From Eledone cirrhosa (lineage: Eukaryota), in NCBI GenBank assembly GCA_964016885.1, contig OZ024765.1, positions 19,220,001 to 19,284,000 on the forward strand: DNA of 64,000 bases. Reading direction: 5' to 3'. Shown here in pieces: positions 4,599 to 64,000 of the stretch (within the stretch, counting starts at the first letter, position 1; every line of letters begins with the position of its first letter). Under the pieces are notes generated by a model. The model made no database searches and was not told the origin of the DNA. It worked only from the letters and a program-made list of their open reading frames with translations. The position numbers and the translations under genes are program-made.

Positions 4599-4634
4599 TA
4601 TATATATTTACATATATGTATATATTTATGTTTG

Positions 4635-4667
<33 letters not shown>

Positions 4668-4702
4668 GTATATATACACGCACATATATATATATTTATG
4701 TT

Positions 4703-4757
<55 letters not shown>

Positions 4758-4794
4758 GTATATATACACGCACATATATATATATTTATGTTTG

Positions 4795-4827
<33 letters not shown>

Positions 4828-4862
4828 GTATATATACACACACATATATATATATTTATGTT

Positions 4863-4903
<41 letters not shown>

Positions 4904-4936
4904 GTATATATACACACACATATATATATTTATGTT

Positions 4937-4986
<50 letters not shown>

Positions 4987-5125
4987 TGTATATATACACA
5001 CACACACACATATATATATACATATAAAAGAAATGAATACAAAGGAATATGTACCGTTAAAACATGTTTATATAACAATGCACCTACGTTCGTTTCACCC
5101 AGAATGGGCTTCTCTTGTTTTCTAT

Positions 5126-16469: not shown

Positions 16470-16807
16470 AAAATAAAGTACCAGTAATACACTGGGATAA
16501 TTGCTGGCCTTGTGCCAAAAGTAGAAACAATTATTATTAAATAAAGTACCAGTAATACACTGGGATAATTGCTGGCCTTGTGCCAAAAGTAGAAACAATT
16601 ATTATTAAATAAAGTACCAGTAATACACTGGGATAATTGCTGGCCTTGTGCCAAAAGTAGAAACAATTATTATTAAATAAAGTACCAGTAATACACTGGG
16701 ATAATTGCTGGCCTTGTGCCAAAAGTAGAAACAATTATTATTAAATAAAGTACCAGTAATACACTGGGATAATTGCTGGCCTTGTGCCAAAAGTAGTAAC
16801 AATTATT
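16470..16807 (+). repeat. 5 x 68-bp tandem array formed from the 3' end of a family M SINE
   Basis: aaataaagtaccagtaatacactgggataattgctggccttgtgccaaaagtagaaacaattattatt repeated. Confidence 0.9.
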
Positions 16808-27440: not shown

Positions 27441-27442
27441 AA

Positions 27443-27907
27443 TAATTATTTCTACTTTTGGCACAAGGCCAGCAATTTACCCCAGTGCATTACTGGTACT
27501 TTATTTTATCGACCCCGTAATAATTGTTTCTACTTTTGGCACAAGTCCAGCAATTACACCAGTGTATTACTGGTACTTTATTTTATCGACCTCGTAATAA
27601 TTGTTTCTACTTTTGGCACAAGGCCAGCAATTATCCCAGTGTATTACTGGTACTTTATTTTATCGACCTCGTAATAATTGTTTCTACTTTTGGCACAAGG
27701 CCAGCAATTATCCCAGTGTATTACTGGTACTTTATTTTATCGACCTCGTAATAATTGTTTCTACTTTTGGCACAAGGCCAGCAATTACCCCAGTGTATTA
27801 CTGGTACTTTATTTTATCGACCTCGTAATAATTGTTTCTACTTTTGGCACAAGGCCAGCAATTTACTCCCAGTACATTACTGGTACTTTATTTTATCGAC
27901 CCCGTAA
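27443..27907 (-). repeat. About 6 x 77-bp tandem array from the 3' end of a family M SINE
   Basis: Unit includes ttttatcgacctcg; the SINE head is complete once at 27907-28016. Confidence 0.9.
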
Positions 27908-29854: not shown

Positions 29855-31330
29855 GGTTATACAGAGATGATAGTTATAAGACATTGTTGGTTAGTTGATT
29901 GGTGGGTTATACAGAGATGATGGTTATAAGGCATTGTTGGTTAGTTGATTGGTGGGTTATACAGAGATGATGGTTATAAGGCATTGTTGGTTAGTTGATT
30001 GGTGGGTTATACAGAGATGATGGTTATAAGGCATTGTTGGTTAGTTGATTGGTGGGTTATACAGAGATGATGGTTATAAGACATTGTTGGTTAGTTGATT
30101 GGTGGGTTAGATAGAGATGATGGTTATAAGACATTGTTGGTTAGTTGATTGGTGGGTTATACAGAGATGATGGTTATAAGACATTGTTGGTTAGTTGATT
30201 GGTGGGTTATACAGAGATGATGGTTATAAGACATTGTTGGTTAGTTGATTGGTGGGTTATACAGAGATGATGGTTATAAGGCATTGTTGGTTAGTTGATT
30301 GGTGGGTTAGATAGAGATGATGGTTATAAGGCATTGTTGGTTAGTTGATTGGTGGGTTATACAGAGATGATGGTTATAAGGCATTGTTGGTTAGTTGATT
30401 GGTGGGTTATACAGAGATGATGGTTATAAGGCATTGTTGGTTAGTTGATTGGTGGGTTATACAGAGATGATGGTTATAAGGCATTGTTGGTTAGTTGATT
30501 GGTGGGTTATACAGAGATGATGGTTATAAGGCATTGTTGGTTAGTTGATTGGTGGGTTAGATAGAGATGATGGTTATAAGACATTGTTGGTTAGTTGATT
30601 GGTGGGTTATACAGAGATGATGGTTATAAGGCATTGTTGGTTAGTTGATTGGTGGGTTATACAGAGATGATGGTTATAAGGCATTGTTGGTTAGTTGATT
30701 GGTGGGTTAGATAGAGATGATGGTTATAAGGCATTGCTTGTAGATCAGTTGATTGGTTGCTTATACAGAGATAATTGTTTCTACGTTAGGCACAAGGCCA
30801 GCAATTAACCAGTGTATTACTGGTACTGGCTTACACAGAGATAATGGTTATAAGACATTGTTGGTTAGTTGATTGGTGGGTTAGATAGAGATGATGGTTA
30901 TAAGGCATTGTTGGTTAGTTGATTGGTGGGTTATACAGAGATGATGGTTATAAGGCATTGTTGGTTAGTTGATTGGTGGGTTATACAGAGATGATGGTTA
31001 TAAGGCATTGTTGGTTAGTTGATTGGTGGGTTATACAGAGATGATGGTTATAAGGCATTGTTGGTTAGTTGATTGGTGGGTTATACAGAGATGATGGTTA
31101 TAAGGCATTGTTGGTTAGTTGATTGGTGGGTTAGATAGAGATGATGGTTATAAGGCATTGCTTGTAGATCAGTTGATTGGTGGCTTATACAGAGATAATT
31201 GTTTCTACGTTAGGCACAAGGCCAGCAATTAACCAGTGTATTACTGGTACTGGCTTACACAGAGATAATGGTTATAAGACATTGTTGGTTAGTTGATTGG
31301 TGGGTTAGATAGAGATGATGGTTATAAGGC
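29855..31330. repeat. 50-bp satellite with two embedded SINE fragments (424-bp higher-order duplication)
   Basis: ggttatacagagatgatggttataaggcattgttggttagttgattggtg repeated; family M SINE pieces at 30772-30828 and 31195-31252. Confidence 0.93.
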
Positions 31331-32327
31331 ATTGTTTGTAGATCAGTTGGTTGGTTGGTTGGTTGGTTTGCAGGTGAGTTAATTGGTTGGTTGGTGGTTT
31401 AGTTGGTTGGTTTGTCAGTAAATTGGTTGGTGAGTTGATAAGTTAGTTGGTCAATTGGTTGATTGTCAAAGTAGTAGTTATTGATTGTGGTAGTTGTGGT
31501 GGTGAGAGTAGGAAACACAAAAAACAAAAAGACAAAATGATAATTACAATACATAAGATATTGCTTATAGATGTTTCACAGCTAATTGGCAGTTCATCAG
31601 TAGACAGGACAAGTGCACTTATCACTCTGTCCACAGAGAGCTATAGTCAAATGTTATTTATGTCAAATACAAATGGTAGTGGTGATGGTGGTGGTGGTAG
31701 TGGTGGTGGTGGTGGTAGTGGTGGTGATGTTGGTAGTGGTGGTGGTGGTGGTAGTGAGTGTTGGTTGTGGTGGTGGTAGTGGATGGTGGTGTTGGTGGTA
31801 GTGGTGGTAGTGGTTGTGGTGGTGGTGGTGGTGGTAGTGGTGGTGGTGGTGGTGGTGGTGGTGGTGGTGGTGGTGGTGGTGGTGGTGGTGAGTGTTGGTT
31901 GTGGTGATAGTGGATGGTGGTGGTGGTGGTGGTGATAGTGGATGGTGGTGGTGGTGGTGATAGTGGATCGTGGTGGTGGTGATAGTGGATCGTGGTGGTG
32001 GTGATAGTGGATGATGGTGATGATAGTGATATTGGATGGTGGTGGTGATAGTGGATGGTGGTGGCGGTGGTGATAGTGGATGGTGGTGGTGGTGGTGGTG
32101 GTGATAGTGGATGGTGGTAGTGGTGGTGATAGTGGATGGTGGTGGTGATAGTGGTGGTGATAGTGGATGGTGGTAGTGGTAGTGGATGGTGACAAATGTT
32201 TCCAGGACATTTTTTACAGACCATACATTGTACCAGTGACTGCCTGTGTGTTAGACAGACGAAACGTGCTATACATATATTATAATATATACAATGTTGT
32301 TTGTGGCATCTGTTGTGTGTTACTTAC

Positions 32328-38030: not shown

Positions 38031-38782
38031 AATTTCTGTTTATTTGCCACGAGGGCACAAAAGAAAAGGACACATACATGGGGGGGGGGGGGGTTACATA
38101 GAAATCGAGTAAAAAAAATGTAATAACAAATAAAATTATACCAAGAAGGTCCTCAATAGGGAGGGTTCGTTTTGGGGTCACACACACACCCGAAAAAAAT
38201 GTGCGACTCTTCTCCACGGGAGCACAAAGAGAGGGTGCTCCCTTCTTCCTTCATCCTTTTCCACCTACAGGCTGAGGTAGAGAGAAGGCCCATTCACACG
38301 GGCCATTCTCACAACTTTCACCCACCTTTCATAAAACTGGCTGGGGTGGAGCACCTCTCTCTCCATTCTGATCCTTCTTCTGAAATGGTATCGGAAGAAA
38401 AGGACCAGTTGTTGGTCGGAAAGAAAGGTGTCCAACCTCAGCCCTTTTAGACGCGTCCACCATACAACCTCTTTTACCATGGCTATTACACAGAGGAAGA
38501 CCGCCTCTCCATTTCTGAAGGGGGGAGGCAGCTTGATCGTTAACAATGGCCTCGGTGGTCAACCTAATTGGTCCCACCCGTGACAGCAGTTGTTCGACAT
38601 AGCCCCACAGATCGGCAACGCCCGGGCAGTGCACCAATGCGTGCGCGACGGTTTCCTCGTCGCGCACGCATCTGGGACAGATCTTTTCCGAGGGGTCCCT
38701 ACCCTGGCGCTCGTGTCTGTAGAGCTTATCCCGAACGGGCAGAGCCCCTTGGTAGCACTGCCAGGCCAAGGACTTCTGGAAG
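38031..38782 (-). mobile_element. 5'-truncated diverged copy of the L1/Tx1 LINE within (GACA)n
   Basis: FQKSLAWQCYQGALPVRDKL...CPRC...HC to NGPSLYLSL, plus 3' UTR ending ggcaaataaacagaaa. Confidence 0.9.
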
Positions 38783-38900
38783 ACAGATACACAGACAGAC
38801 AGATAAACAGAGAGACAAATGGTGTAAATACGTGGGCAGGTAGTTGACAGGTGTATAGCTGTACAGTGGTAGGTTCCATTCCCAGTATTGTTGGCTTTAA

Positions 38901-40236
38901 CCATTTACATTACTCTATATATACTATTGTATTTTCACAGTAAAGGCTTTACCTCACATAATATCTCACATAACATTTACATTACTCTATATATACTATT
39001 ATATTTTCACAGTAAAGGCTTTACCACACATAATATCTCACATAACATTTACATTACTCTATATATACTATTGTATTTTCACAGTAAAGGCTTTACCTCA
39101 CATAATATCTCACATAACATTTACATTACTCTATATATACTATTGTATTTTCACAGAAAAGGCTTTACCTCACATAATATCTCACATAACATTTACATTA
39201 CTCTATATATACTATTGTATTTTCACAGTAAAGTCTTTACCTCACATAATATCTCACATAACATTTACATTACTCTATATATACTATTGTATTTTCACAG
39301 AAAAGGCTTTACCTCACATAATATCTCACATAACATTTACATTACTCTATATATACTATTGTATTTTCACAGTAAAGTCTTTACCTCACATAATATCTCA
39401 CATAACATTTACATTACTCTATATATACTATTGTATTTTCACAGAAAAGGCTTTACCTCACATAATATCTCACATAACATTTACATTACTCTATATATAC
39501 TATTGTATTTTCACAGAAAAGGCTTTACCTCACATAATATCTCACATAACATTTACATTACTCTATATATACTATTGTATTTTCACAGAAAAGGCTTTAC
39601 CTCACATAATATCTCACATAACATTTACATTACTCTATATATACTATTGTATTTTCACAGTAAAGTCTTTACCTCACATAATATCTCACATAACATTTAC
39701 ATTACTCTATATATACTATTGTATTTTCACAGTAAAGTCTTTACCTCACATAATATCTCACGTAACATTTACATTACTCTATATATACTATTGTATTTTC
39801 ACAGAACAGTCTTTACCTCACATAATATCTCACATAACATTTACATTACTCTATATATACTATTGTATTTTCACAGTAAAGTCTTTACCTCACATAATAT
39901 CTCACATAACATTTACATTACTCTATATATACTATTGTATTTTCACAGTAAAGTCTTTACCTCACATAATATCTCACATAACATTTACATTACTCTATAT
40001 ATACTATTGTATTTTCACAGTAAAGGCTTTACCTCACATAATATCTCACATAACATTTACATTACTCTATATATACTATTGTATTGTCTCACATAACATA
40101 GCATCTATGAGATTTTGATGTTATTTATTTTGAGAACAATACCTTAACATCAGTATGAGTGGCCAGTTCCAGCTGGTTTGAACTGAAGAAGGGGAGAGAA
40201 TCCTGGCCAGATATGGCTGGTTTAAATGGTAAAGGG
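38901..40236 (+). mobile_element. TTAA-flanked piggyBac-like MITE carrying about 16 x 72-bp tandem repeats (no LINE inside)
   Basis: TTAA at 38897-38900 and 40237-40240; right end taaaggg; left TIR partly deleted; same 72-bp unit and right subterminal region as 49433-56587. Confidence 0.75.
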
Positions 40237-40819
40237 TTAAACAACACACAAACACACAAATAAACACACATACTCTTATATAGCTCCTACTGACACACAC
40301 ACATATTCGCCCCCACCTCACCCCCACACATACACATATCCTCCCACACACACGTGGATCCCCCCACACACATGCAGATCCCCACACACACACACAGATC
40401 CCCCACATACAGATCCCCCCACACACACAGATCCCCCCACACACCGATACCCCCACACTCACACACAGATGCCCCCCTCCCGCACACAGATCCTCCCACA
40501 CACATACAGCTCTCCCCCCCACACACACAGTATATATCAATACTCCCCCGTTGACCAAATTCTTGTGATTCCATAACATCATTGATCTCAGTATTTGATC
40601 AGGACCTCACACAAAACTGTCTCCAAATATTCCAGATCAATAAAACACAAATGTTAATCTTTTGTACTTTGGTAGGGTGAAGCTGCCAGCCAGGTGTAGA
40701 GTCTAATGATGTGGTGGTAAAGGTGTTGGACTTATAATGGAATCCTGTGTCACTGAAACACTCTGGAACTTCTGGAACTCTCACAGCCTTATCCGGCCCT
40801 CGCAATTTGGATTTATCCC

Positions 40820-42608
40820 TAACTCTCTGCAATGGGTGTGAAGAATGATTTTTTTAACTGCTTGAAGTCCTTCATTCTCAGCCGAAAAGAGGTAGTCATG
40901 GTTCTAAGACAGCATTCCTCACCGTATGAGATGTCATCTGGTGTACCACAGGGATCTGTTCTTGGTCCCCTTTTGTTTGTTGCATAGATTAATGATATAG
41001 ATGCCAACTTAAAGTACTGAAATATGCATATGACATCAAGCTGTACCTTGAGATAAAAAGGACAGATCCTGAACACTATAGATCTTGCCTGTAATCTGAC
41101 CTGGACACAATGCAGCAACGGATCACAGACTGGCAACACAAGCTGGCTGTGGACAAGTGTACCACCATGCATTTTGGGAGTAAAAACCCAGCGTCCACAT
41201 ACTCCCTCCACAACACTAATATCAAGAAGTCTTCTTGTGAACGTGACCTGGGCATTACTGTCAGCAGCAATTTGTGTTGGACAAAGCACGTCTCTGAAAT
41301 TTTCAAGAAGGCCGAGTGTGTCTTGGCATCACTCAGCAAGACTTTTGTCAGCCACTCTCCAGCTATCTATTTAAAGTTATATATAGCTATGGTGCGGCCA
41401 CACTTAGAATTTGCATCACCAGTCTGGATCCCCTATCTTACTCAGAACATTGACCACCTGGAAACTGTTCAGAGACATGCAACCAAGTGAATACCCTCCA
41501 TCAGGCATCTACCATACTCTGAGCGCCTTGCTTCCCTGTGCATGGATACATTGAAGCTCCGACGCCTGGCAACTGACTTGGTAGACACCCACAAAATTAT
41601 TAACCATGTTGCCAACAACATCCCTGAGCACCTTTTTGATTTCCATGTGTCTAACACACGTGGGCATTCCTACAAAGTCAGAAAACAGCACAGCTCCCAT
41701 GACTTTCGGAAACATTTTTTCACTCAGAGTTGCTGAAGCATGGAACAAACTCCCTGCATCAGTTGTTAGCTGTCTGTCGAGACACTGCATCCATTAAAAC
41801 CTCCATGGAACAAACTACCTGCATCAGTTGCTAGCTGCCGAGACACTGCATCCTTTAAAACTTCCATGGAACAAACTACCTGCATCAGTTGTTAGCTGTC
41901 GAGACACTACATCCTTTAAAACCTCCATGGTACAAACTACCTGCATCAGTTGTTAGCTGTCGAGACACTGCATCCTTTAAAACCTCCATGGAACAAACTA
42001 CCTGCATCAGTTGTTAGCTATCGAGACACTACATCCTTTAAAACCTCCATGGAACAAACTACCTGCATCAGTTGTTAGCTGTCGAGACACTGCATCCTTT
42101 AAAACCTCCATGGAACAAACTCACTGCATCAGTTGTTAGCTGTCGAGACACTGCATCCTTTAAAACCTCCATGGAACAAACTACCTGCATCAGTTGTTAG
42201 CTATCGAGACACTGCATCCTTTAAAACCTCCATGGAACAAACTACCTGCATCAGTTGTTAGCTGTCGAGACACTGCATCCTTTAAAACCTCCATGGAACA
42301 AACTACCTGCATCAGTTGTTAGCTATCGAGACACTGCATCCTTTAAAACCTCCATGGTACAAACTACCTGCATCAGTTGTTAGCTGTCGAGACACTGCAT
42401 CTTTTAAAACCTCCATGCTTCCTGAGATTCGCCAACACTACACCTGATATCACCCCCCCCCCTACATACACACACACACACATGTATATCATGACTCATA
42501 CACTGTTCACTTTCCTGACATTTGTACATTATTCTATGTACTATACATGCACCTTTGATGAGTTGTAGTGCACCTGAGCACTGTACACAATAATTTCATT
42601 ATTATTAT
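40820..42608 (+). mobile_element. Decayed CR1-like LINE 3' portion with internal 61-bp array
   Basis: SGVPQGSVLGPLLF, ERDLGI, VRPHLEFASPVW and TRGH motifs; 3' UTR with (ATT)n tail. Confidence 0.85.
41739..42418. repeat. About 11 x 61-bp tandem array from the CR1 ORF end
   Basis: catggaacaaactacctgcatcagttgttagctgtcgagacactgcatcctttaaaacctc repeated. Confidence 0.95.
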
Positions 42609-42627: not shown

Positions 42628-43444
42628 CATACAGAGGCAGACCGCCTCTCCTTCATTCTTAAATGAAGGTGGCAGGGTGATCCTCACGATGGACTCGGCT
42701 GACAACGGGATGCATCCCACACATGACAGTAGCTGTTCGACATAATTCCACAGGTCGGTCACTCCTGGGCACTGAACGGTTTCGATGTCCTGCTCGCATC
42801 TTGGACAGGTCCTTTTGGCAGGATCTCTGCCAGGGCGTCCGTGCCTATAGATTTTGTCTCGAACTGGTACAGCTCCTCAGTAGCACTGCCAGGCCAGAGA
42901 CCTCTGGAAGTTATCCATAGGCCCTGGACGGAAAGTCCTCCCGAACAGACTGGTCATTTCATGCTCCTCGATGCCTAGAGTTTCCCCAAGAACATCGTTG
43001 CACTTATCCTCCACTAATCCCCTATAGAATGTCGAAGTAGAGTCTCCGCTGATTGCCATTTCCGCTTGGTAGAGAGCTGTGAGCGCCTGTAGGCACTCGA
43101 TCTGATAGATAGATAGATAGATAGACGGACGGATCTGATAGATAATTTTCTTTTTATTTGCCACCAGGGCATCAAAGAGTGGGACAAGTACAATGGGGGG
43201 AAATTTACATAAAAAGGTGTCCTCAATAAGGAGGAGGCAATAACAAAATATAAAAATATAAAAATATAAAATATAACAAAAATAAATTGAATAACAAAAT
43301 CCTCAATAGGGAGGAGGCGCCTTGGGGGGTCGCACACATCCCCGAAAAAGTCTGCAACCCTTCTCCTCAGGAGCACAGAGAGAGGGTGCTCCCTTGATCT
43401 TTCATCTTTCTCACCTACAGGCTGATATAGAGAGAAGGCCCATT
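42628..43444 (-). mobile_element. Two fragments of the L1/Tx1 LINE family separated by (GATA)n
   Basis: 43146-43444 is the 3' end and UTR; 42628-43101 is ISGDSTSTFYRGL...FQRSLAWQCY...EGEAV. Confidence 0.85.
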
Positions 43445-43591
43445 TATTATGCAGTGTTAATGTGATAGACCAGGTGTGGTGGGTTCCTGAATCATCTCTC
43501 ACTGCTGTCATGATGGAGTTGGCAACCTGCATGGGTGAGCCCTACGCTGTCAACTGGCTTCAAATCTATCACAGTGGAGACTTTTTCCATG

Positions 43592-44339
43592 GGCGTTAAA
43601 CCCTCTATTAGGGTTCCCCGGGGACACAAAACCCTGCTGAAAACTTTTTCCCTTCGATTTATATGAAATTTAATCATAGGTAAATGACAAGATATGATGC
43701 CTATTCTAAAAATTTCAGCAAATTTCAATAATATTAAGACACTTAATTGGGGTTAAACCCCCTATTAAGGTTCCCTGGAGGCACAAAACCCCGCTGAAAA
43801 TGTTTCTCCTTCGATTTATATGAAATTTAAACCATAGGTAAATGACAAGATATGATGCCTATTCTAAAAATTTCAGCAAATTTCAATAATATTAAGACAC
43901 TTAATTGGGGTTAAACCCCCTATTAAGGTTCCCTGGAGGCACAAAACCCCGCTGAAAATGTTTCTCCTTCGATTTATATGAAATTTAAACCATAGGTAAA
44001 TGACAAGATATGATGCCTATTCTAAAAATTTCAGCAAATTTCAATAATATTAAGACACTTAATTGGGGTTAAACCCCCTATTAAGGTTCCCTGGAGGCAC
44101 AAAACCCCGCTGAAAATGTTTCTCCTTCGATTTATATGAAATTTAAACCATAGGTAAGTGACAAGATATGATGCCTATTCTAAAAATTTCAGCAAATTTC
44201 AATAATATTAAGACACCCTAATTGGGGTTAAACCCCCTATTAAGGTTCCCTGGAGGCACAAAACCCCGCTGAAAATGTTTCCCCTTCGATTTATATGAAA
44301 TTTAAACCATAGGTAAATGACAAGATATGATGCCTATTC
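43592..44339. repeat. About 4.7 x 158-bp tandem repeat
   Basis: ttaaacccc at 43753, 43911, 44069 and 44228. Confidence 0.92.
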
Positions 44340-49209: not shown

Positions 49210-49315
49210 TTCTTTATTTTGAAAACAATACCTTAACATCAGTATGGGTAGTCAGTTACAACCGGTTTGAACAGAAAGAGGTGAGAGAATTCTGGCCGGT
49301 TTAAATGCTAAAGGG
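49210..49315 (+). mobile_element. Solo right end of the piggyBac-like MITE
   Basis: tattttgaaaacaataccttaacatcag...tgctaaaggg followed by TTAA. Confidence 0.7.
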
Positions 49316-50518
49316 TTAAATATTATATTGGTCTGAAGAAAAGGTAGAGATTTTTAAGGAGAAAAAGTTGGATAGGCAGACATAAACAGGGCAAAGATAA
49401 TGAAATATATAGGGGGAAAAATTAGTGTTTAACCCTTTAGCATTCACATTACTCTATATATACTATTATATTTTCATGGTAAAGGCTTTTCCTCACATAG
49501 TATCTCACATAACATTTACATTACTCTATATATACTATTATATTTTCATGGTAAAGGCTTTACCTCACATAGTATCTCACATAACATTTACATTACTCTA
49601 TATATACTATTATATTTTCATGGTAAAGGCTTTACCTCACATAATATCTCACATAAGATTTACATTACTCTATATATACTATTGTATTTTCACAGTAAAG
49701 TCTTTACCTCACATAATATCTCACATAAGATTTACATTATTCTATATATACTATTGTATTTTCATGGTAAAGGCTTTACCTCACATAATATCTCACATAA
49801 GATTTACATTACTCTATATATACTATTGTATTTTCACAGTAAAGTTTTTACCTCACATAATATCTCACATAACATTTACTTTATTCTATATATACTATTG
49901 TATTTTCATGGTAAAGGCTTTACCTCACATAATATCTCACATAACATTTACATTACTCTATATATACTATTATATTTTCATGGTAAAGGCTTTACCTCAC
50001 ATAATATCTCACATAACATTTACATTACTCTATATATACTATTGTATTTTCACAGTAAAGGCTTTACCTCACATAATATCTCACATAACATTTACATTAT
50101 TCTATATATACTATTGTATTTTCACAGTAAAGGCTTTACCTCACATAATATCTCACATAACATTTACATTACTCTATATATACTATTGTATTTTCACAGT
50201 AAAGCCTTTACCTCACATAATATCTCACATAACATTTACATTACTCTATATATACTATTGTATTTTTATGGTAAAGGCTTTACCTCACATAATATCTCAC
50301 ATAACATCTCGTATACGAGAGACGTGTGTTGACGTGTGTGAACAAGCTCGGCTACCGAGTCGGATTTACTTACTCAAAAAGTGAGTTTTGATTAATTTTT
50401 TTATACTGTAATATACGTTAACCCCTTGCCTTGGTCGTCAAACTTTGAGTTTATTTATTTTCGCCCCTTTTTGGGGCGAATTTTCCAGTTAAAAATTTAT
50501 TACGGCAAACTAATAGAA

Positions 50519-52261
50519 ATGGACGGAATTTTCACATCTCATCCTAACGTGAAAGCCACGCCCCCTAAGAAAGGTGATACAGAGAAGCTAGAAGCACAAG
50601 GCTCTAAGTCTTCCCTCCTCACTTCTGCAAAAGAAACATGGAACACGGAATTAAAAGAAAAATTTGAAAAAATGGGTGAAAACCCAGAAAGTCACATAAA
50701 CGCAGACAAAAACAACAACGACAATAACAGCAATAGTCACAACACCAACCAAGGAAAAAATAACGATAACACCAAACAAAGCGAACCCACTACTGGTACC
50801 TCCTTTGCACAGGCGGTCCGGAAAACACAAACCTGCAAGCAACTGGACATTACAACTCTGAGAGAAAAGATGAAGGAAGCGAAACAGTATGTAACTTTCA
50901 AAGAAGGAGGAGACTTCACAATCACCTCCCCACAAGAAATCAAAAGAGACACGACGCTAAGAACGATATCTTTCAGAACAATTTCCAACATAACAAGGAA
51001 ACCAACTCAATTATCCCAAAAAGAGATTGAGCTGGTCCTAAAAAATGTGTGGAGTGATATATCGTTCATACAAAAAGGGCCACTCTATGGGAATATAACG
51101 GTCCTAATGAAGGATCAATTGACGGCCAGGAAATACTCTGTGGCACCAATTGTTTCCAAGCTACATACATTTTTCCCCACATATTTAGGGAAAAGAACGC
51201 AGAAGATAAGGGTCTCCGGAATCCGGCCAAATGCATGCATTTCCTGGGTACTAACAGGATTTTTAGAAGACGAGGACGGAATCCTCTCAGTAGGAGAAGT
51301 CACCACAGACGTTTTCGGCGGTTTGAGCGTGGAGGTTCTGGTCCAAATGAGACCAGAACGAATCGCTAGAATACCACAGAGGGTTTCCCTCGATGGAGAA
51401 ACATTTATATATATTTCAGCCGAGGGTAGGAGGCCCATATGTTACTACTGTTCAAGCAGGGGTCATCTAAGGGCTGCTTGTCCTCAATTGACAAAAAAAA
51501 AGGCTCTTTTGCCTACACCCCACACACCACCACCGCCACCACCACCACCACCACCACCTCCACCACCACCACCACAACAACAACAAAAACAACAGGGAAA
51601 AATAACACAAGACACGGCCCCACCCAAAACAACTCCCAAAACACACACAAATACAACAAAACCCCAAAATACACCACTACCCGACAGCACGGACGAGGAC
51701 CCAGCGGAAACGGCACCTAGTGACGAAGAGGGGGAACCCTTCCAACCTGTAAAAAGGAAAAAAAGAAAGCACCACTCGAACATAAACGAAACAAACACAC
51801 AACCACCAACAAAAACAAAACAAACAGAACAAACAAAATCCGCCCCACCCCAAAACATAACACATACAACAAAACGTAAGCACACACAAGAACAACAAAC
51901 AAACACAACACAAATAAAACAGTATACATACATTAACACAAATAACAAAGAACTAGTAAAAACAATACACAAAGACCCTTTGGTGGAAACTGAAGGGCAA
52001 TTCTTTGCAAGCGCGGCCAACAAACCGCATTTAAAAATGATAAGACTCCCAATGGACACCTATGCAAAACTAAGAGAGAACTTTCCTGAGGACGTGGGGA
52101 AAACATGTACTCGACCCTATAACCGCGTCCTCTTGAAACGTTTCCCCACCCACACCTCACCAAACACCCCCACTCCACCACAGAACAACACCCCACCAAA
52201 CAACCCCTCCAATACGCCCATGGATATTGTGCAACCTGCTCCTCAGGAGCCGAACAGGTAG
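50519..52261 (+). CDS. LINE ORF1p (gag-like CCHC zinc knuckle, Pro/Thr-rich tail)
   Basis: First ATG at 50519; SFAQAV motif; CYYCSSRGHLRAAC knuckle; polyproline; basic KRKKRK. Confidence 0.85.
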   Translation: MDGIFTSHPNVKATPPKKGDTEKLEAQGSKSSLLTSAKETWNTELKEKFEKMGENPESHINADKNNNDNNSNSHNTNQGKNNDNTKQSEPTTGTSFAQAVRKTQTCKQLDITTLREKMKEAKQYVTFKEGGDFTITSPQEIKRDTTLRTISFRTISNITRKPTQLSQKEIELVLKNVWSDISFIQKGPLYGNITVLMKDQLTARKYSVAPIVSKLHTFFPTYLGKRTQKIRVSGIRPNACISWVLTGFLEDEDGILSVGEVTTDVFGGLSVEVLVQMRPERIARIPQRVSLDGETFIYISAEGRRPICYYCSSRGHLRAACPQLTKKKALLPTPHTPPPPPPPPPPPPPPPPQQQQKQQGKITQDTAPPKTTPKTHTNTTKPQNTPLPDSTDEDPAETAPSDEEGEPFQPVKRKKRKHHSNINETNTQPPTKTKQTEQTKSAPPQNITHTTKRKHTQEQQTNTTQIKQYTYINTNNKELVKTIHKDPLVETEGQFFASAANKPHLKMIRLPMDTYAKLRENFPEDVGKTCTRPYNRVLLKRFPTHTSPNTPTPPQNNTPPNNPSNTPMDIVQPAPQEPNR

Positions 52262-52282
52262 GTCCTTCCTCTTTTAACCAAC

Positions 52283-55200
52283 ATGGCTGATATAAGAGTT
52301 GGGTGTCTGAATGTACGTGGCCTGGGACTGTCTTGGAAACAAGGCAAACTTTTAAACGATCTCAGGTCGCATAGAATGGATGTAATGGCTATTTGCGAGT
52401 CCAGGATCAGCAGCGAGCACCAACTGGCGCCCCTCTTCGACGACTTTGAGATCTTCGCATCTCTCTGTCAACCGGGGGGTGGGGGTGGAGTTGTCGTTCT
52501 GCTGCGAAAACACCTGGGCCTCGCCATACAGAAGGTGCACCTGGACCCGGAGGGTCGACTGGTGGTTTTAGACGTCGGCAGTAGTGAAAGTGGAGCCCTT
52601 AGACTAATAGCTGTGTACGCCCCTTTTTGGGCAGCGCGGCCGGAATACTTCCAACGTCTGGAAACTTTTCTGGGAACGTCCCGCTCCTTGCTTTTAGTGG
52701 GGGACTGGAATGGTATCCTGGATGCACGTTGGGACTATGTAGGGGCATGTGCCAATAGAGGGGGGTGTAAAAGCCTCAAAAGGTTAATCGGCCGATTTGA
52801 CCTGGCCGATAGATATCGACTAGATTTTCCGACTGTACCACTATGGACGTGGACCAATCGCAGTGGAACATCTAGGTCGTACCTAGATAGGGTCCTAGTT
52901 AGAGAGAACGATAGGGACACATTTAGCTGTCCAAAAATGTTCATGGTTGACTATTCGGATCACAAGTTAGTGACCTGCATAGCCAACCTTGATAGAACCC
53001 ATAGACAGGGACCCGGTTACTGGAAGCTGAACTTGTCCTTACCGAGAAGCAAAGCTTACAGTAAACGGATTAGCACGTTAGTTAAGCAGAGTTTGACAGG
53101 GGCAATTGTCAACAACAGGTGGTGGAGCTCTCTTAAGAGAGCAATTAGAATAGAATCGATAGGTTTTAGTCAGGAATTAGCAAGGGATAGGAACAAGACG
53201 GAAAGGGAATTAGTAGATAGAGTAGAAGAGGCGATTAGGAGTGGCAATGTAGCCGGCGTGCTGGCATCAAGAATGGCCTTAGACCAGTTCTTTGAGGTGA
53301 AGCATGAAGGCTGCGTTGTCAGGAGTAAAATACGTGCTCTGGGTAATGAGGGAGCCAAAGCTGTGAGCTGGGCCCGAGTGACAGAGGCAAAAAGTGGGAA
53401 CAAGTCCACGATTCGGTCTTTGAAGGACCAGGATGGGCGTGTGATCCTTGAACCTGGGCAGATGTGTGCGGCCTTTCAGCGGCACTTTGCACGACTGTTC
53501 GAGAGGGGCGGCGCGCCGGGTGAGACTATGGATTTCAATCCATACCTCGACGGTCTGCCGCGCCTCTCGGACGCGGAGGCGAAGTCCTGCGAAAGGACGA
53601 TTTCAGCTGCTGAGATAGGGGCGGCGCTGAGCCAATGCGGCAAACGCAAATCCCCGGGTCTCGATGCTCTACCATACGAGCTATATGTAGCGATGCCGGA
53701 CTTGTTCTCCGATATCCTCGAAGCGGTCTACTGCAACTGGCAGCAGAACGGGAGAATTCCCAGTTCTGTGACCAAGGGCGTAGTTACGCTGGTGAGGAAG
53801 GATGAGAACAAGGGGGATGACATAAGTAACTTCAGGCCCATAACTCTGCTAAATACAGAGTTAAAGATTTTGGCCAAGGTGTTAGCGAAGAGGTTGGCGC
53901 TTGTCGTTGGAAACCTGGTGGGAGAAGCGCAGACATGCGCAATCCCGTCCAGGTCCATTCACGACAATCTCCACCTTATGCGATACATCATAGAGAGGGT
54001 AGGGAATGAACCCGGCTTTGGTGGGGCCCTGATCAACTTGGATCAATCTAAAGCTTTCGATAGGGTTGACCATCGTTACCTGGATGCGGTGCTCGCGGCG
54101 GCAGGCTTCGGACCCGTTTTCAGGGGTTGGATTGCTGCGATGCACAGCAGCAACGTCTGCTCAAGGGTCAAGGTGAACGGCCACCTCTCGGAGCCGTTCC
54201 AAATCATGCGATCCATCCGACAGGGATGCCCTCTCTCCTCCCTACTGTATGTGCTGGCTCTTGAGCCACTACTGCGGAAGTTGGAGCGGTTGCAGGGCAT
54301 CCCTTTGGAACCGGGATTGCAGAAAGCGGCGTCGGCCTACGCCGATGACGTGACAGTAATGGTGTCGAAAACCTCGCAAATCGGTGAGATCGGCACCTTA
54401 CTGGAGGAATATGAAAGGTTTACAGGAGCCAAGCTGAACCGGGACAAGTCCGTCGGTTTGCAACTCGGAACATGGAGAGGCAAACCGATGCCCTCCAACG
54501 ACGTCGTCGGACGCTGGACGGAGGGCCCGGTGAAGCTGCTTGGGGTCTGGTTCGGACCAGACCTCCAGGTGGAGAAAAACTGGAACGAGGTAACGGCCAG
54601 GGTGTTTGCACTCACCCAGAAGTGGGCCCAGTGCAAACTATCCCTGAAAGGTCGAGCGGAGGTGGCGAATACTTATATAGCATCCGTCATCTACTACCGC
54701 TTGACCGTCGTGCCTTGCCCAGTGAAAAGACTCGCCAAAATGGAGTGCGCGCTGTTCCAATTTCTTTGGAACAAGCGGACCCCTTTGGTGAGGAGATCCA
54801 TCTGCTGTCAACACCCTTCGAAAGGAGGGCTGGGGATGCCGTGGCTACAGATGCGTAAACACGCATTAAGGCTACGGCACCTCCAGGTATTCCTCACCGG
54901 TCAACCGGTGTGGGCCCCGTTTGTGAGGCGAGCCTTTCCCAGACTCGTCTCGCTCACCGAGCTGCAATCCTGGGTCAAGCAAAGACCGAGAAAAGTGGGC
55001 GACTGGCACATTGAATGTGCCCAGGCGCTCACGGCCCTCTGGAAAGCGGACCCGGCAATCAGTGGAGACTCCACCTCGACATTCTATAGAGGGTTGGTAC
55101 GCAGCAGGTGCGACGATGCTCTCGGAGAAGCTCTAGGCATGGAGGAAGATGAACTGGCCAGTCTGTTCGGTAGGACGTTTGGCCCTGGACCGATGGACAA

Positions 55201-55720
55201 CTTCCAAAAGTCCCTGGCTTGGCAGTGCTACCGAGGGGCTCTACCCGTTCGAGACAAGCTCCACAGGCATGGGAGCCTGGGTAGAGATCCTTTGAATAAG
55301 ATCTGTCCGAGATGCGTGCATGATGACGAAACCGTTGCGCACGCATTCGTACACTGCCCAGGCATTGCTGACCTGTGGGGCTATGTGGAACGACTACTGT
55401 CGAGGGTGGGACCAATCCGGTTGACCACCGAGTCCATTGTCACGATCAAACCGCCTCCCCCTTTCAAAAACGAAGGAGAGGCGGTTTTTCTCTGTGTGGT
55501 AGCCATGGCTAAAGAAGTTGTATGGTGGACGAGGCTGAAAGGGCTGAGGTCAGACACCTTTCTCTCCGGCCAACAACTGGTCCCCTTTTTCAAATACCAT
55601 TTTAAAAGAAGGATCAGAATGGAGAGAGAGGTGCTCTACCCCAACAAGTTTTATGAAAGGTGGGTGAAAGTAGGGAGAATGGCCAGAGTGAATGGGTCTT
55701 CTCTCTATATCAGCCTGTAG
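52283..55720 (+). CDS. LINE ORF2p (APE endonuclease, reverse transcriptase, C-terminal CCHC), 1145 aa
   Basis: LNVRGL, VYAP, GDWN, YLDR, SDHK, WKLN, KSPGLD, FRPITLLN, DQSKAFDRV, IRQGCPLS, YADD and CPRC...HAFVHC. Confidence 0.96.
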   Translation: MADIRVGCLNVRGLGLSWKQGKLLNDLRSHRMDVMAICESRISSEHQLAPLFDDFEIFASLCQPGGGGGVVVLLRKHLGLAIQKVHLDPEGRLVVLDVGSSESGALRLIAVYAPFWAARPEYFQRLETFLGTSRSLLLVGDWNGILDARWDYVGACANRGGCKSLKRLIGRFDLADRYRLDFPTVPLWTWTNRSGTSRSYLDRVLVRENDRDTFSCPKMFMVDYSDHKLVTCIANLDRTHRQGPGYWKLNLSLPRSKAYSKRISTLVKQSLTGAIVNNRWWSSLKRAIRIESIGFSQELARDRNKTERELVDRVEEAIRSGNVAGVLASRMALDQFFEVKHEGCVVRSKIRALGNEGAKAVSWARVTEAKSGNKSTIRSLKDQDGRVILEPGQMCAAFQRHFARLFERGGAPGETMDFNPYLDGLPRLSDAEAKSCERTISAAEIGAALSQCGKRKSPGLDALPYELYVAMPDLFSDILEAVYCNWQQNGRIPSSVTKGVVTLVRKDENKGDDISNFRPITLLNTELKILAKVLAKRLALVVGNLVGEAQTCAIPSRSIHDNLHLMRYIIERVGNEPGFGGALINLDQSKAFDRVDHRYLDAVLAAAGFGPVFRGWIAAMHSSNVCSRVKVNGHLSEPFQIMRSIRQGCPLSSLLYVLALEPLLRKLERLQGIPLEPGLQKAASAYADDVTVMVSKTSQIGEIGTLLEEYERFTGAKLNRDKSVGLQLGTWRGKPMPSNDVVGRWTEGPVKLLGVWFGPDLQVEKNWNEVTARVFALTQKWAQCKLSLKGRAEVANTYIASVIYYRLTVVPCPVKRLAKMECALFQFLWNKRTPLVRRSICCQHPSKGGLGMPWLQMRKHALRLRHLQVFLTGQPVWAPFVRRAFPRLVSLTELQSWVKQRPRKVGDWHIECAQALTALWKADPAISGDSTSTFYRGLVRSRCDDALGEALGMEEDELASLFGRTFGPGPMDNFQKSLAWQCYRGALPVRDKLHRHGSLGRDPLNKICPRCVHDDETVAHAFVHCPGIADLWGYVERLLSRVGPIRLTTESIVTIKPPPPFKNEGEAVFLCVVAMAKEVVWWTRLKGLRSDTFLSGQQLVPFFKYHFKRRIRMEREVLYPNKFYERWVKVGRMARVNGSSLYISL

Positions 55721-56837
55721 GTGAAAGAAGAGGAAAAAGCGGAGACGAGGGAAGCACCTACTCTTTGTGCTCCTGAGGAGAAGGGTTGCACATTTTTTCC
55801 GGGGTGTGTGCGACCCATGTTAATGCCCCCTCCCTATTGAGGACTTCGTTTGTTGTTGTTATTTCATTGTTATATTTTTGTACTCGTTAATTATATGTAA
55901 ACTTCCCCCCTTGTATCTGTCCCTACCTTTTGTGCCCTAGTGGCAAATAAAGAAACCACTCTATATATACTATTGTATTTTCATGGTAAAGGCTTTACCT
56001 CACATAATATCTCACATAACATTTACATTACTCTATATATACTATTGTATTGTCACAGTAAAGGCTTTACCTCACATAATATCTCACATAACATTTACAT
56101 TACTCTATATATACTATTGTATTTTCATGGTAAAGGCTTTACCTCACATAATATCTCACATAACATTTACATTACTCTATATATACTATTGTATTTTCAT
56201 GGTAAAGGCTTTACCACACATAATATCTCACATAACATTTACATTACTCTATATATACTATTGTATTTTCATGGTAAAGGCTTTACCTCACATAATATCT
56301 CACATAACATTTACATTACTCTATATATACTATTGTATTTTCATGGTAAAGGCTTTACCTCACATAATATCTCACATAACATTTACATTACTCTATATAT
56401 ACTATTGTATTTTCATGGTAAAGGCTTTACCTCACATAATATCTCACATAACATCGAATCTATGAGATTTTGAAAGTATTTATTTTGAGAAGAATACCTT
56501 AACATCATGTGCGGCCAGTTACAGCCAGTTTCAACAGAAAGAGGTAGAGAATTCTGGCCAGTTTGGGCCGGTTTGAACACTAAAGGGTTAAATAATTTTT
56601 AATGATTTAAAAGATGTTTCCATCTATATATGAATGTGTGTAGGTGTGTATATATGTGTGTGTAGGTATGTATATCTGTGTGTAGGTATGTATACGTGTG
56701 TGTAGGTATGTATACGTGTGTGTAGGTATCTATATATGTGTGTAGGTATGTATATATGTGTGTATGTATATATATATAAGTGTGTGTGAGTACATGTATA
56801 TGATAGTGATGATGAAACAGCTGTAAATTAAATAGTT

Positions 56838-59863: not shown

Positions 59864-61342
59864 AAGCTCCCATGACTTTCGGAAATATCTTTTCACTCTC
59901 AGAGTTGTTGAAGCATGGAACAAACTCCCTGCATCAGTTGTTAGCTGTCGAGACACTGCATCCTTTAAAACCTCCATGGAACAAACTCCCTGCATCAGTT
60001 GTTAGCTGTCGAGACACTGCATCCTTTAAAACCTCCATGGAACAAACTCCCTGCATCAGTTGTTAGCTGTCGAGACACTGCATCCTGTAAAACCTCCATG
60101 GAACAAACTCCCTGCATCAGTTGTTAGCTCTCAGGACACTGCATCCTTTAAAACCTCCATGGAACAAACTCCCTGCATCAGTTGTTAGCTCTCAGGACAC
60201 TGCATCCTTTAAAACCTCCATGGAACAAACTACCTGCATCAGTTGTTAGCTGTCGAGACACTGCATCCTTTAAAACCTCCATGGAACAAACTCCCTGCAT
60301 CAGTTGTTAGCTCTCAGGACACTGCATCCTTTAAAACCTCCATGGAACAAACTCCCTGCATCAGTTGTTAGCTCTCAGGACACTGCATCCTTTAAAACCT
60401 CCATGGAACAAACTCCCTGCATCAGTTGTTAGCTCTCAGGACACTGCATCCTTTAAAACCTCCATGGAACAAACTCCCTGCATCAGTTGTTGGCTGTCGA
60501 GACACTGCATCCTTTAAAACCTCCATGGAACAAACTCCCTGCATCAGTTGTTAGCTCTCAGGACACTGCATCCTTTAAAACCTCCATGGAACAAACTCCC
60601 TGCATCAGTTGTTGGCTGTCGAGACACTGCATCCTTTAAAACCTCCATGGAACAAACTCCCTGCATCAGTTGTTAGCTCTCAGGACACTGCATCCTTTAA
60701 AACCTCCATGGAACAAACTCCCTGCATCAGTTGTTGGCTGTCGAGACACTGCATCCTTTAAAACCTCCATGGAACAAACTCCCTGCATCAGTTGTTAGCT
60801 GTCGAGACACTGCATCCTTTAAAACCTCCATGTAACAAACTACCTGTATCAGTTGTTAGCTCTCAGGACACTGCATCCTTTAGAACCTCCATGGAACAAA
60901 CTCCCTGCATCAGTTGTTAGCTGTCGAGACACTGCATCCTTTAAAACCTCCATGGAACAAACTCCCTGCATCAGTTGTTAGCTGTCGAGACACTGCATCC
61001 TTTAAAACCTCCATGGAACAAACTCCCTGCATCAGTTGTTAGCTGTCGAGACACTGCATCCTTTAAAACCTCCATGGAACAAACTACCTGCATCAGTTGT
61101 TAGCTGTCGAGACACTGCATCCTTTAAAATTTCTCTGCTTCCTGAAATTCACCAACACTACACCTGATTTCCCCCCACCACACACATGCACGCATGTGTG
61201 TCTGTCTGTGTGTATATCATGACCCATACACTGTTCACTTTCCTGACATTTGTACATTATTTATTCTATGTACTATACATGCACCTTTGATGAGCTATAG
61301 TGCACCTGAGCACTGTACACAACAATTTTCAATATTATTATT
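59864..61342 (+). mobile_element. CR1-like 3' fragment with about 20 x 61-bp array (59914-61129)
   Basis: Same unit and flanks as 41690-42608. Confidence 0.88.
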
Positions 61343-62577: not shown

Positions 62578-64000
62578 GTCACTTAACACCACAGACCCTA
62601 GGATGGTGAACCTCTAGGCTTGAGACAGGCTTAACACTGTGATGGACTGGTGTCCTGTCCAGCGGGAGTCTTGTTCACTCAGTCACTTAACACCACAGAC
62701 CCTAGGATGGTCAACCTCTAGGCTTGAGACAGGCTTAACACTGTGATGGACTGGTGTCCTGTCCAGCGGGAGTCTTGTTCACTCAGTCACTTAACACCAC
62801 AGACCCTAGGATGGTCAACCTCTAGGCTTGAGACAGGCTTAACACTGTGATGGACTGGTGTCCTGTCCAGGGGGAGTCTTGTTCTCTCAGTCACTTAACA
62901 CCACAGACACTAGGATGGTCAACCTCTAGGCTTGAGACAGGCTTAACACTGTGATGGACTGGTGTCCTGTCCAGGGGGAGTCTTGTTCACTCAGTCACTT
63001 AACACCACAGACACTAGGATGGTCAACCTCTAGGCTTGAGACAGGCTTAACACTGTGATGGACTGGTGTCCTGTCCAGGGGGAGTCTTGTTCACTCAGTC
63101 ACTTAACACCACAGACACTAGGATGGTCAACCTCTAGGCTTGAGACAGGCTTAACACTGTGATGGACTGGTGTCCTGTCCAGGGGGAGTCTTGTTCACTC
63201 AGTCACTTAACACCACAGACCCTAGGATGGTCAACCTCTAGGCTTGAGACAGGCTTAACACTGTGATGGACTGGTGTCCTGTCCAGGGGGAGTCTTGTTC
63301 ACTCAGTCACTTAACACCACAGACACTAGGATGGTCAACCTCTAGGCTTGAGACAGGCTTAACACTGTGATGGACTGGTGTCCTGTCCAGGAGGAGTCTT
63401 GTTCACTCAGTCACTTAACACCACAGACACTAGGATGGTCAACCTCTAGGCTTGAGACAGGCTTAACACTGTGATGGACTGGTGTCCTGTCCAGCGGGAG
63501 TCTTGTTCTCTCAGTCACTTAACACCACAGACCCTAGGATGGTCAACCTCTAGGCTTGAGACAGGCTTAACACTGCGATGGACTGGTGTCCTGTCCAGGA
63601 GGAGTCTTGTTCACTCAGTCACTTAACACCACAGACACTAGGATGGTCAACCTCTAGGCTTGAGACAGGCTTAACACTGTGATGGACTGGTGTCCTGTCC
63701 AGGAGGAGTCTTGTTCACTCAGTCACTTAACACCACAGACCCTAGGATGGTCAACCTCTAGGCTTGAGACAGGCTTAACACTGTGATGGACTGGTGTCCT
63801 GTCCAGGGGGAGTCTTGTTCTCTCAGTCACTTAACACCACAGACACTAGGATGGTCAACCTCTAGGCTTGAGACAGGCTTAACACTGTGATGGACTGGTG
63901 TCCTGTCCAGGGGGAGTCTTGTTCTCTCAGTCACTTAACACCACAGACCCTAGGATGGTGAACCTCTAGGCTTGAGACAGGCTTAACACTGTGATGGACT
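62578..64000. repeat. 104-bp satellite (at least 13 units, runs off the window) containing a SINE central-domain-like motif
   Basis: Period 62581 to 62685; tgatggactggtgtcctgtccagggggag resembles V/Nin-type SINE domains. Confidence 0.9.

Follow-up and report, generated by a model that had tools for sequence, protein, structure and literature searches.

Tx1-type LINEs are known that use other transposons as their target. In Xenopus laevis, Tx1L and Tx2L reside in the non-autonomous piggyBac element Tx1D (passages of PMC4494074, PMC1950540 and PMC6719617). For crocodilians, sections of PMC4494074 place Tx1-Mar and SINEU-3 in Mariner-N4_AMi and Tx1-9_AMi in Harbinger elements, give truncated copies as showing independence, and propose co-transcription from the host element.

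The 64,000-nucleotide stretch of Eledone cirrhosa DNA analyzed here (the window) holds a system of the same kind as Xenopus Tx1L/Tx1D and crocodilian Tx1-Mar. As in Tx1L/Tx1D, an APE-type LINE with two ORFs is specific for one non-autonomous piggyBac family; unlike Tx1L, the present LINE lives in an invertebrate, uses an unrelated target, and loses 7 bp of that target in its full-length copies. Tx1L reportedly makes a 23-bp duplication within the Tx1D tandem repeats. The β-hairpin loop has 9 residues in the present LINE, by alignment to human L1, versus 11 given for Tx1L in part of PMC1950540. The crocodilian elements likewise are Tx1-type LINEs preferring a non-autonomous DNA transposon (PMC4494074, in part), but they are old (~85–90% identity) and prefer regions, whereas the present LINE is 0–3% diverged and targets a tandem repeat with nucleotide precision. 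What is new here is the contrast between copies: 5′ ends are kept in 94 of 101, and a 7-bp linker of the target is lost in full-length copies but kept in five of six truncated ones.

The composite element and its host

The features of the composite and of an unoccupied relative of its host are as follows.

38897..40240, + strand: empty host-MITE relative (unoccupied target), 16.4 units, left end damaged
49429..49450, + strand: left end of the host MITE, TTAA and terminal repeat, 22 of 22 nt as in the end of an autonomous piggyBac
49441..50307, + strand: 72-bp array upstream of the LINE, 12.0 copies
50285..50307, + strand: 23-nt head, the end of the upstream unit, presumably riding on the LINE RNA
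50308..55955, + strand: unique LINE body, L1/Tx1 group, APE-type, with a 12-bp palindrome at its start
50519..52261, + strand: ORF1, 580 aa, carrying a CCHC knuckle and a stretch of low-complexity Pro/Thr/Gln sequence
52283..55720, + strand: ORF2, 1,145 aa, with APE endonuclease, reverse transcriptase and zf-RVT
55946..55951, + strand: AATAAA signal, separated from the unit start by 6 nt, in DNA without poly(A)
55956..55965, + strand: target-like tail, two element-borne bases (TT in the target) and the first 8 nt of the unit
55958..56454, + strand: 72-bp array downstream of the LINE, 6.9 copies (~7 units)
56455..56591, + strand: right side of the host MITE, subterminal sequence, terminal repeat and TTAA, with 19 of 20 terminal nt as in the autonomous piggyBac

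The layout described in the earlier note, a piggyBac-like MITE running from TTAA through terminal repeat, 72-bp array, LINE and second array to terminal repeat and TTAA, was borne out. The TTAA copies lie at 49429–49432 and 56588–56591, and the inverted ends, imperfect in the window, are of the CCC...GGG type with TTAA on both sides, as in non-autonomous piggyBac elements. A young autonomous piggyBac of 2.6 kb with an open 558-aa ORF occurs in the same genome, and because it has the same ends, the host of the LINE is a piggyBac MITE. The right subterminal sequence aligns locally to it with a score of 50 (maximum of 300 shuffles, 34), and of 30 DDE_Tnp_1_7 loci fetched, 19 carry host-MITE-type sequence at both ends; the MITE is likely still supplied with transposase. 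The empty host MITE proposed 10 kb away is present at 38897–40240; it has a damaged left terminal repeat, and at the right end its identity is only 81%. The output of a general repeat finder on the window was dominated by microsatellites.

Between the two arrays lie 5,650 bp, and the 5.65-kb LINE with intact ORF1 and ORF2 reported there was seen again, both ORFs being open. Pfam domains of ORF2 (Exo_endo_phos, RVT_1, zf-RVT) reveal an N-terminal APE, a reverse transcriptase and a C-terminal zinc-binding region. Its best solved relative is human L1 ORF2p (E 3e-52, residues 4–857), with R2 at E 2e-22, in a clade comparison that took in the full proteins of L1 and R2. Protein sequence thus compared strongly supports membership in the L1/Tx1 group of APE-type non-LTR retrotransposons; protein, cluster, NCBIfam and Atlas searches returned no Tx1-labelled reference for the LINE proteins among their matches. 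In ORF1, the zf-CCHC match is weak (E 0.007, below the Pfam cut-off), and the Pfam profile search gave no match to Transposase_22. Atlas look-alikes, to be taken as a lead, suggest a resemblance of residues 90–335 to CCHC/RRM-type clusters (score 0.89–0.92), and RRM/CCHC-type ORF1s have been associated with Tx1 in non-mammalian animals (PMC5203782). A literature search for ZCCHC3 together with Tx1 found nothing.

One position in the 72-bp unit

Roughly 290 near-identical LINE copies lie in the same orientation at precisely the same point of the 72-bp unit. The window junctions noted earlier (cataacat / LINE / actct) were confirmed, with the 7-bp linker of the unit missing between them. Genome-wide, 279 of 289 exact 5′ ends are preceded by the same 10 nt of the unit, and 242 of 267 exact 3′ markers lie at the same junction; in a genome-ordered sample the shared junction is found at 105/106 5′ ends and at 102/102 3′ ends, the latter running into the unit start. 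The target amounts to ~0.08% of the genome (34,726 exact sites × 72 bp in 3.0 Gb), and the shared 5′ junction therefore excludes chance insertion. The comparison of junctions across near-identical copies, proposed in the earlier note with random flanks as the outcome that would speak against specificity, thus came out in favor of insertion specifically into the MITE unit. Its wider reading, a young site-specific L1/Tx1-group LINE inside a piggyBac MITE repeat and analogous to Tx1L in Tx1D, is strongly supported. Preference for a target sequence, typical though not universal in the Tx1 clade, is hence a trait of this LINE.

Some 35,000 72-bp sites are empty and fewer than 1% are occupied, and up to six LINE copies can share one array. 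The family is young, with a divergence of 0–3% (median 0.63%, counted against the commonest letter), and 17 of 94 copies have both ORFs open.

Older relatives in microsatellites, also claimed for the window, were recovered at 38039–38782 (81%) and 42628–43444 (74–83%), ending in (TCTG)n and (TATC)n. Across the same genome, sister families occupy (TATC)n/(TCTG)n; their ORF2 identity is ~84%, and their endonuclease is ~77% identical to that of the MITE-targeting family. They parallel Kibi in (TC)n and Koshi in (TTC)n, microsatellite-specific members of the Tx1 clade (PMC4494074, in part), in different repeats; unlike Kibi and Koshi, microsatellite- and MITE-targeting families here coexist at this close relationship. 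In a tree whose relatives carry no clade labels, the MITE family is sister to the microsatellite families and not nested among them (fork 90/91). Because it falls outside them, the tree does not support a direction for the target switch. The microsatellite targets resemble a TCTATA core of the 72-bp unit.

Junctions, insertion route and alternatives

The two ends of the LINE probably overlap the target, by the 23-nt head and a tail of ~10 nt. The head is exact at 98 of 106 5′ junctions compared with 697 of 1,521 ordinary units (Fisher p 4e-23), and columns 44–65 of the upstream unit show 2 differences in 88 copies, other units differing at 0.012–0.023 per site. Behind this head, the linker is lost in 93 of 93 full-length copies. 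Five of the six truncated copies keep it and join at varying unit positions (L123 at +9, L130 at +6, L131 at +10 to +13, L215 at +1 to +2, L225 at +6 to +9); in the sixth, L127, it is absent and the junction is of the full-length type. At the 3′ side, CC is found at 81 LINE junctions and in none of 1,435 ordinary units. The tail classes follow age order, from TT (2.9% within-class divergence, 10 copies) through TC (2.1%, 17) to CC (1.0%, 66). A modest enrichment is seen for the opening 8 nt of the downstream unit (99/102 versus 1,375/1,521, p 0.02).

For R2, 'anneal' and join junctions are both known (PMC11331408 and PMC6895275, in part): R2Bm has 27 nt of target sequence at its RNA 5′ end, with seamless full-length and end-joined truncated products (same passages). 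Linker loss behind a near-invariant head, together with linker retention in five of six truncated copies, is a genomic signature that suggests a 5′ junction of the R2-like 'anneal' type in an APE-type LINE. R2 is a single-ORF element that targets rDNA and has a restriction-like endonuclease and an HDV-like ribozyme; the present LINE differs in its two ORFs, its APE endonuclease and the lack of an Rfam ribozyme match at its 5′ end, where one chance match was returned (E 2.6). The 5′ region folds with a z of −2.5.

We consider it probable that this young APE-type LINE reaches its site by an endonuclease nick combined with base-pairing of target-like RNA ends. Transcription of a copy would start ~23 nt within the upstream unit and continue until a few nt into the downstream one. 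Canonical 3′ processing takes place 10–30 nt downstream of AATAAA, and with the signal 6 nt before the unit the transcript would consequently end inside the downstream unit. The endonuclease would nick near the unit start, in or beside the TCTATA core, a position that we infer from the six truncated copies, L127 with its full-length type among them. The RNA tail, judging from the TT>TC>CC drift, may then pair with the nicked DNA and prime reverse transcription without poly(A). As the contrast between full-length and truncated copies suggests, the head of a full-length cDNA would anneal to the upstream unit and yield one seamless junction lacking the linker, and a cDNA that stopped early would be end-joined at positions +1 to +13 with the linker retained.

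Alternatively, the head could be invariant because perfect targets are selected and not because the head is replaced. Moreover, three copies in 43-bp arrays on C20 are preceded by two complete 72-bp units, common to two LINE lineages, for which the 23-nt head alone is an insufficient explanation; resident 72-to-43-bp junctions, considered as the target of these copies, gave 0 exact matches genome-wide. Two other candidates were rejected. A 65-bp target duplication in place of the 7-bp loss would have to account for flanking units identical in only 11 of 92 copies, against 12/75 and 12/66 for neighbours, and L156, taken for a copy joined to foreign DNA via its head, reflects a later retroelement insertion.

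Site-specific retrotransposition could in principle proceed without RNA homology, the protein reading a long target and a fixed staggered cut deleting 7 bp. The constancy of that loss, seen even in the truncated L127, fits such a cut, and R2Bm makes small target deletions (PMC6895275, in part). APE endonucleases such as that of Tx1L are reported to read ~10 bp (PMC1919474, in part), which is too short for the 38-bp footprint. The retained linker and scattered ends (+1 to +13) of the truncated copies also speak against a fixed cut, as do the CC bases, inherited with the element, and three copies before 43-bp units and one truncated copy at a MITE left end, sites where the head sequence is not resident; we regard this route as unlikely. 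Spread at the DNA level, in which unequal crossover, gene conversion or circle reintegration would move the LINE with its flanking units between arrays, would equally yield full-length copies and fixed junctions. Some tandem copies are indeed local DNA duplications: L112 and L138 differ by 0.02% and repeat their array's variant order, L024 and L025 have upstream arrays in common, the C20 copies have a two-unit head in common across lineages, and mosaic copies occur (A191). As a general route it is nonetheless very unlikely, given that variants lying just 25–50 bp away from the junction are local ones that show no link with LINE relatedness, the 122 closest pairs included, and that the new 5′ junctions of truncated copies require reverse transcription. 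Columns 14–42 of the flanking units show 1.1–1.5 differences within a locus versus 1.7–2.2 between loci and do not track LINE distance; copies are scattered over many arrays with local flanks, and neighbours within one array can be 2% apart.

The earlier note had also raised the possibility that a transposase moves the LINE as cargo; in that case the piggyBac transposase would have multiplied a single founder insertion. Eighteen composites with TTAA and both ends (called with a permissive criterion for end matching, several of them imperfect) and the young autonomous piggyBac, whose ends match and whose ORF is open, make composite transposition conceivable, but the evidence renders it highly improbable. 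All 18 composites differ in unit counts; among 120 copies, 14 pairs with equal counts differ in their arrays (compared ungapped, for pairs of 5 units or more); and unit counts of 29/20, 8/2 and 13/18 accompany LINEs that show no difference at the sites compared. The one identical pair that was checked, L013/L014, is a segmental duplicate with outer flanks in common. A search for the same composite at unrelated TTAA sites found 0 matching array pairs among these 120 copies (~40% of the family), and because of this, and of flank variants that ignore LINE relatedness, the LINE insertions look independent.

Significance

Returning to base-pairing of target-like RNA ends, a more far-reaching reading seems to us evenly balanced between right and wrong: that an APE-type LINE converged on the R2 strategy of target sequence at both RNA ends, so that >90% of insertions would be full-length, oriented and seamless within a repeat borne by a transposon, via a recent switch from a microsatellite target and with occasional carriage of whole host units into arrays lacking them.

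The locus offers a live, high-copy instance of a strategy known from frogs and crocodilians, in which a retrotransposon takes another transposon as its safe and self-renewing site. With hundreds of natural junctions in a full-length and a truncated class, 5′-end completion in APE-type LINEs becomes testable, and the MITE- and microsatellite-using families, at ~77% endonuclease identity, are a natural pair for domain swaps on target specificity. For targeted gene insertion, the LINE merits attention alongside R2, being a compact element of two ORFs whose insertions are mostly full-length and exact to the nucleotide.

Anatomy of the composite and its piggyBac host

The window (C26:19220001-19284000 in a 3.0-Gb assembly of Eledone cirrhosa) bears out the anatomy read in the earlier note: TTAA, a terminal repeat, 12 x 72 bp, a 5,650-bp LINE, 7 units, subterminal sequence, a terminal repeat and TTAA. 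ORF1 (580 aa) gives a weak CCHC match, and ORF2 (1,145 aa) contains endonuclease, reverse transcriptase (RT) and zf-RVT, with human L1 ORF2p as its best solved relative (E 3e-52) and an Argonauta hians protein as its nearest named homologue (68% over the RT region), in keeping with an octopod host. The empty host MITE reported at 38897-40240 exists, but its left end is damaged and its right end is 81% identical.

Composite, LINE and further high-identity minisatellite arrays (units 50-158 bp) in the window
49429..56591, composite of MITE and LINE
50308..55955, LINE
16471-16807, minisatellite array
24408-26958, minisatellite array
27441-27907, minisatellite array
29855-31336, minisatellite array
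41739-42417, minisatellite array
43590-44339, minisatellite array
59914-61129, minisatellite array
62578-64000, minisatellite array

These other arrays may be internal repeats of further MITEs; the 61-bp array is present twice, and there is an apparent relationship, with orientation reversed, between the 68- and 77-bp arrays. An isolated right-end piece of the host MITE (49213-49321, 78% identical) lies 108 bp upstream of the composite. The 72-bp repeat can be read without stops for 302 and 160 aa, with a 24-aa period (49476-50384 and 55983-56465, respectively); these frames are probably incidental. A TATA-like run at unit columns 5-12 (e.g., 50247-50254), about 31-38 nt upstream of the start of the 23-nt head (the end of the unit preceding the LINE), is a possible candidate for a host-derived promoter, and the LINE body opens with a perfect 12-bp palindrome (50308-50319).

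A Pfam search of the assembly for piggyBac transposase returned 125 matches, and both ends of the MITE type were found in 19 of the 30 piggyBac loci fetched. The MITE ends match those of an autonomous piggyBac at 22/22 nt and 19/20 nt, and the subterminal regions align with a score of 50, above all 300 shuffles (34). Identity among seven copies of this element is 97.5-100% across 2,575 bp, and one of them (L165:507-3081, in a fetched stretch) has an open 558-aa ORF. Given the match of ends and subterminal region to a young autonomous element, the host is a piggyBac MITE that has a plausible and recent source of transposase, its mobility today being putative. We note that copies of the 2,575-bp element (stretches L162-L170 and others) reach 100% identity between contigs, and that the same transposase matches include another piggyBac family, whose ends are CCCTTTCG.

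Target-site specificity and independent insertion

As the earlier note had suspected, the junctions share one position of the 72-bp unit. With denominators defined by LINE sequence alone, the exact 25-nt pattern of the unique 5' end has 289 matches in the assembly, 279 of which directly follow one identical 10-nt stretch of the unit, and the exact 43-nt 3' marker has 267, of which 242 continue into the exact junction. A closer look at 109 stretches of 10 kb, taken from the earliest copies in genome order, covered every one of the 11 unpaired 3' ends and, as focal copies, 99 of the first 100 5' ends. It reveals the same unit position and orientation at 105/106 distinct 5' and 102/102 distinct 3' junctions; where these depart from the exact pattern, one or two bases vary. 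The empty target occurs exactly 34,726 times (about 0.08% of the genome), and the LINE occupies less than 1% of these sites. Full-length copies (n=94) lie a median of 0.63% from the commonest letter (maximum 2.7%). An open ORF2 is present in 30 of them, and 17 have both ORFs open; three copies, on contigs C1, C2 and C15, are identical to one on C20 over the sites compared. The system is real, young and nucleotide-exact in its targeting. All 49 of the 5' ends listed for the three largest contigs (C1-C3) lie within 31 Mb of a contig end (15% of their length); of four MITE ends subsampled on C1-C2, three are interior.

The idea that a transposase had moved the composite as cargo found no support: no two of the 18 composites that a loose end match called complete have the same unit counts, and the 120 copies with both arrays include 14 pairs of equal counts, none of which matches on both sides (ungapped comparison, pairs of at least five units). 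The identical pair L013/L014 has 1.5 kb of outer flank in common on each side and is therefore a segmental duplicate; L112/L138 and L024/L025 are local DNA duplications. Flanking-unit variants (columns 14-42) differ by 1.1-1.5 within a locus versus 1.7-2.2 between loci, and the 122 most similar LINE pairs do not have more of these variants in common than distant pairs have. Arrays can hold several copies, up to six (C1:4.22-4.26 Mb), and some neighbors in one array are 2% apart and therefore separate insertions. Inverted arrays adjoin some copies (L128:7858-10000, L159, L032), one with a second LINE in opposite orientation.

Junction mechanism

A 65-bp target duplication was excluded. Upstream tracing of 101 3' ends (81 plus 20) finds the 5' end retained in 94, truncation in 6 and one ambiguous case (L212); so high a retention is unusual for a LINE. 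The 23-nt head is exact at 98/106 junctions versus 697/1,521 ordinary units (p 4e-23), its invariance ending sharply at column 43. The two bases before the downstream unit are TT in 1,388/1,435 ordinary units and CC in none, while CC stands at most LINE ends; divergence within the TT, TC and CC classes is 2.9%, 2.1% and 1.0%, and these bases therefore drift with the element, copied from its RNA.

In the simplest reading, the LINE RNA would carry target sequence at both ends, its tail would pair with the nicked target, and its head would anneal upstream once reverse transcription is complete. This signature points to R2-like annealing: R2 templates with upstream rDNA have been shown to anneal their 5' end upstream (PMC11331408, PMC6895275), and the LINE is likened to R2 in this step from DNA alone. 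A head this invariant would likewise result from selection of perfect targets, and the modest enrichment in the first 8 nt downstream (99/102 vs 1,375/1,521, p 0.02) counts against annealing. Of the six truncated copies, five retain the 7-bp linker (target bases absent at full-length junctions), their joins lying between positions +1 and +13 of the unit, and one, L127, has a full-length-type junction. This contrast fits annealing; the small number of truncated copies counts against it, as does the search for a ribozyme at the LINE 5' end, which gave no match.

Three C20 copies (L191, L192, L193; C20:1-15313 and 6.28 Mb) sit in 43-bp arrays, a satellite made from the MITE terminal repeat with 21 nt added. 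Upstream, all three have an identical pair of 72-bp units that includes one rare variant; downstream, 43-bp units follow. One of the copies belongs to another LINE lineage. The assembly contains no empty 72-to-43 junction, and comparison of stretches from the two loci shows no common flank. During 5' joining, longer upstream pieces may have been carried along or copied from a neighbor; alternatively, DNA recombination and conversion may have built these copies.

Sister families and known systems

A 3' motif common to the relatives has 2,514 matches in the assembly. The first 100 listed comprise 14 from the LINE family and 86 that, on inspection by eye, continue into TATC-, TATA- or TCTG-type sequence. 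Sister ORF2s are about 84% identical to that of the LINE overall (endonuclease 71-78%, RT 89-90%), and at eight chosen loci several copies begin at LINE positions 4000-5100, seemingly truncated more often. All nine E. cirrhosa rows group in the tree (99/100). A target switch from microsatellite to MITE, via a common TCTAT core, stays no more than plausible because in the tree the MITE family branches next to, and not inside, the microsatellite families. The sisters' 5' ends differ from the LINE's yet hold a similar short motif, and in L203, L204 and L210 sister LINEs follow one another in a head-to-tail arrangement, the microsatellite between them being as short as about 11 nt.

Tx1L of Xenopus reportedly makes a 23-bp duplication in a tandem-repeat target. 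The analogy drawn earlier to Tx1L in Tx1D stands. Tx1D, the element into which Tx1L inserts, is a non-autonomous piggyBac (PMC4494074, PMC1950540, PMC6719617, PMC1919474), and crocodilian Tx1-Mar prefers Mariner-N4_AMi (PMC4494074). RRM/CCHC ORF1s are tied to Tx1 (PMC5203782). The LINE is a likely, if putative, member of the Tx1 clade. In Octopus vulgaris, 421 recent L1-Tx1 insertions are reported (PMC13282606), in a main text where 'target', 'site-specific', 'nested' and 'satellite' do not occur; PMC9004415 gave nothing further. The literature searched, mostly outside subscription journals, yielded no description of this LINE/MITE system.

In sum, this is a targeting system of known kind in a phylum new among the examples found, in which close relatives of the LINE use other targets, alongside a junction signature that appears R2-like.
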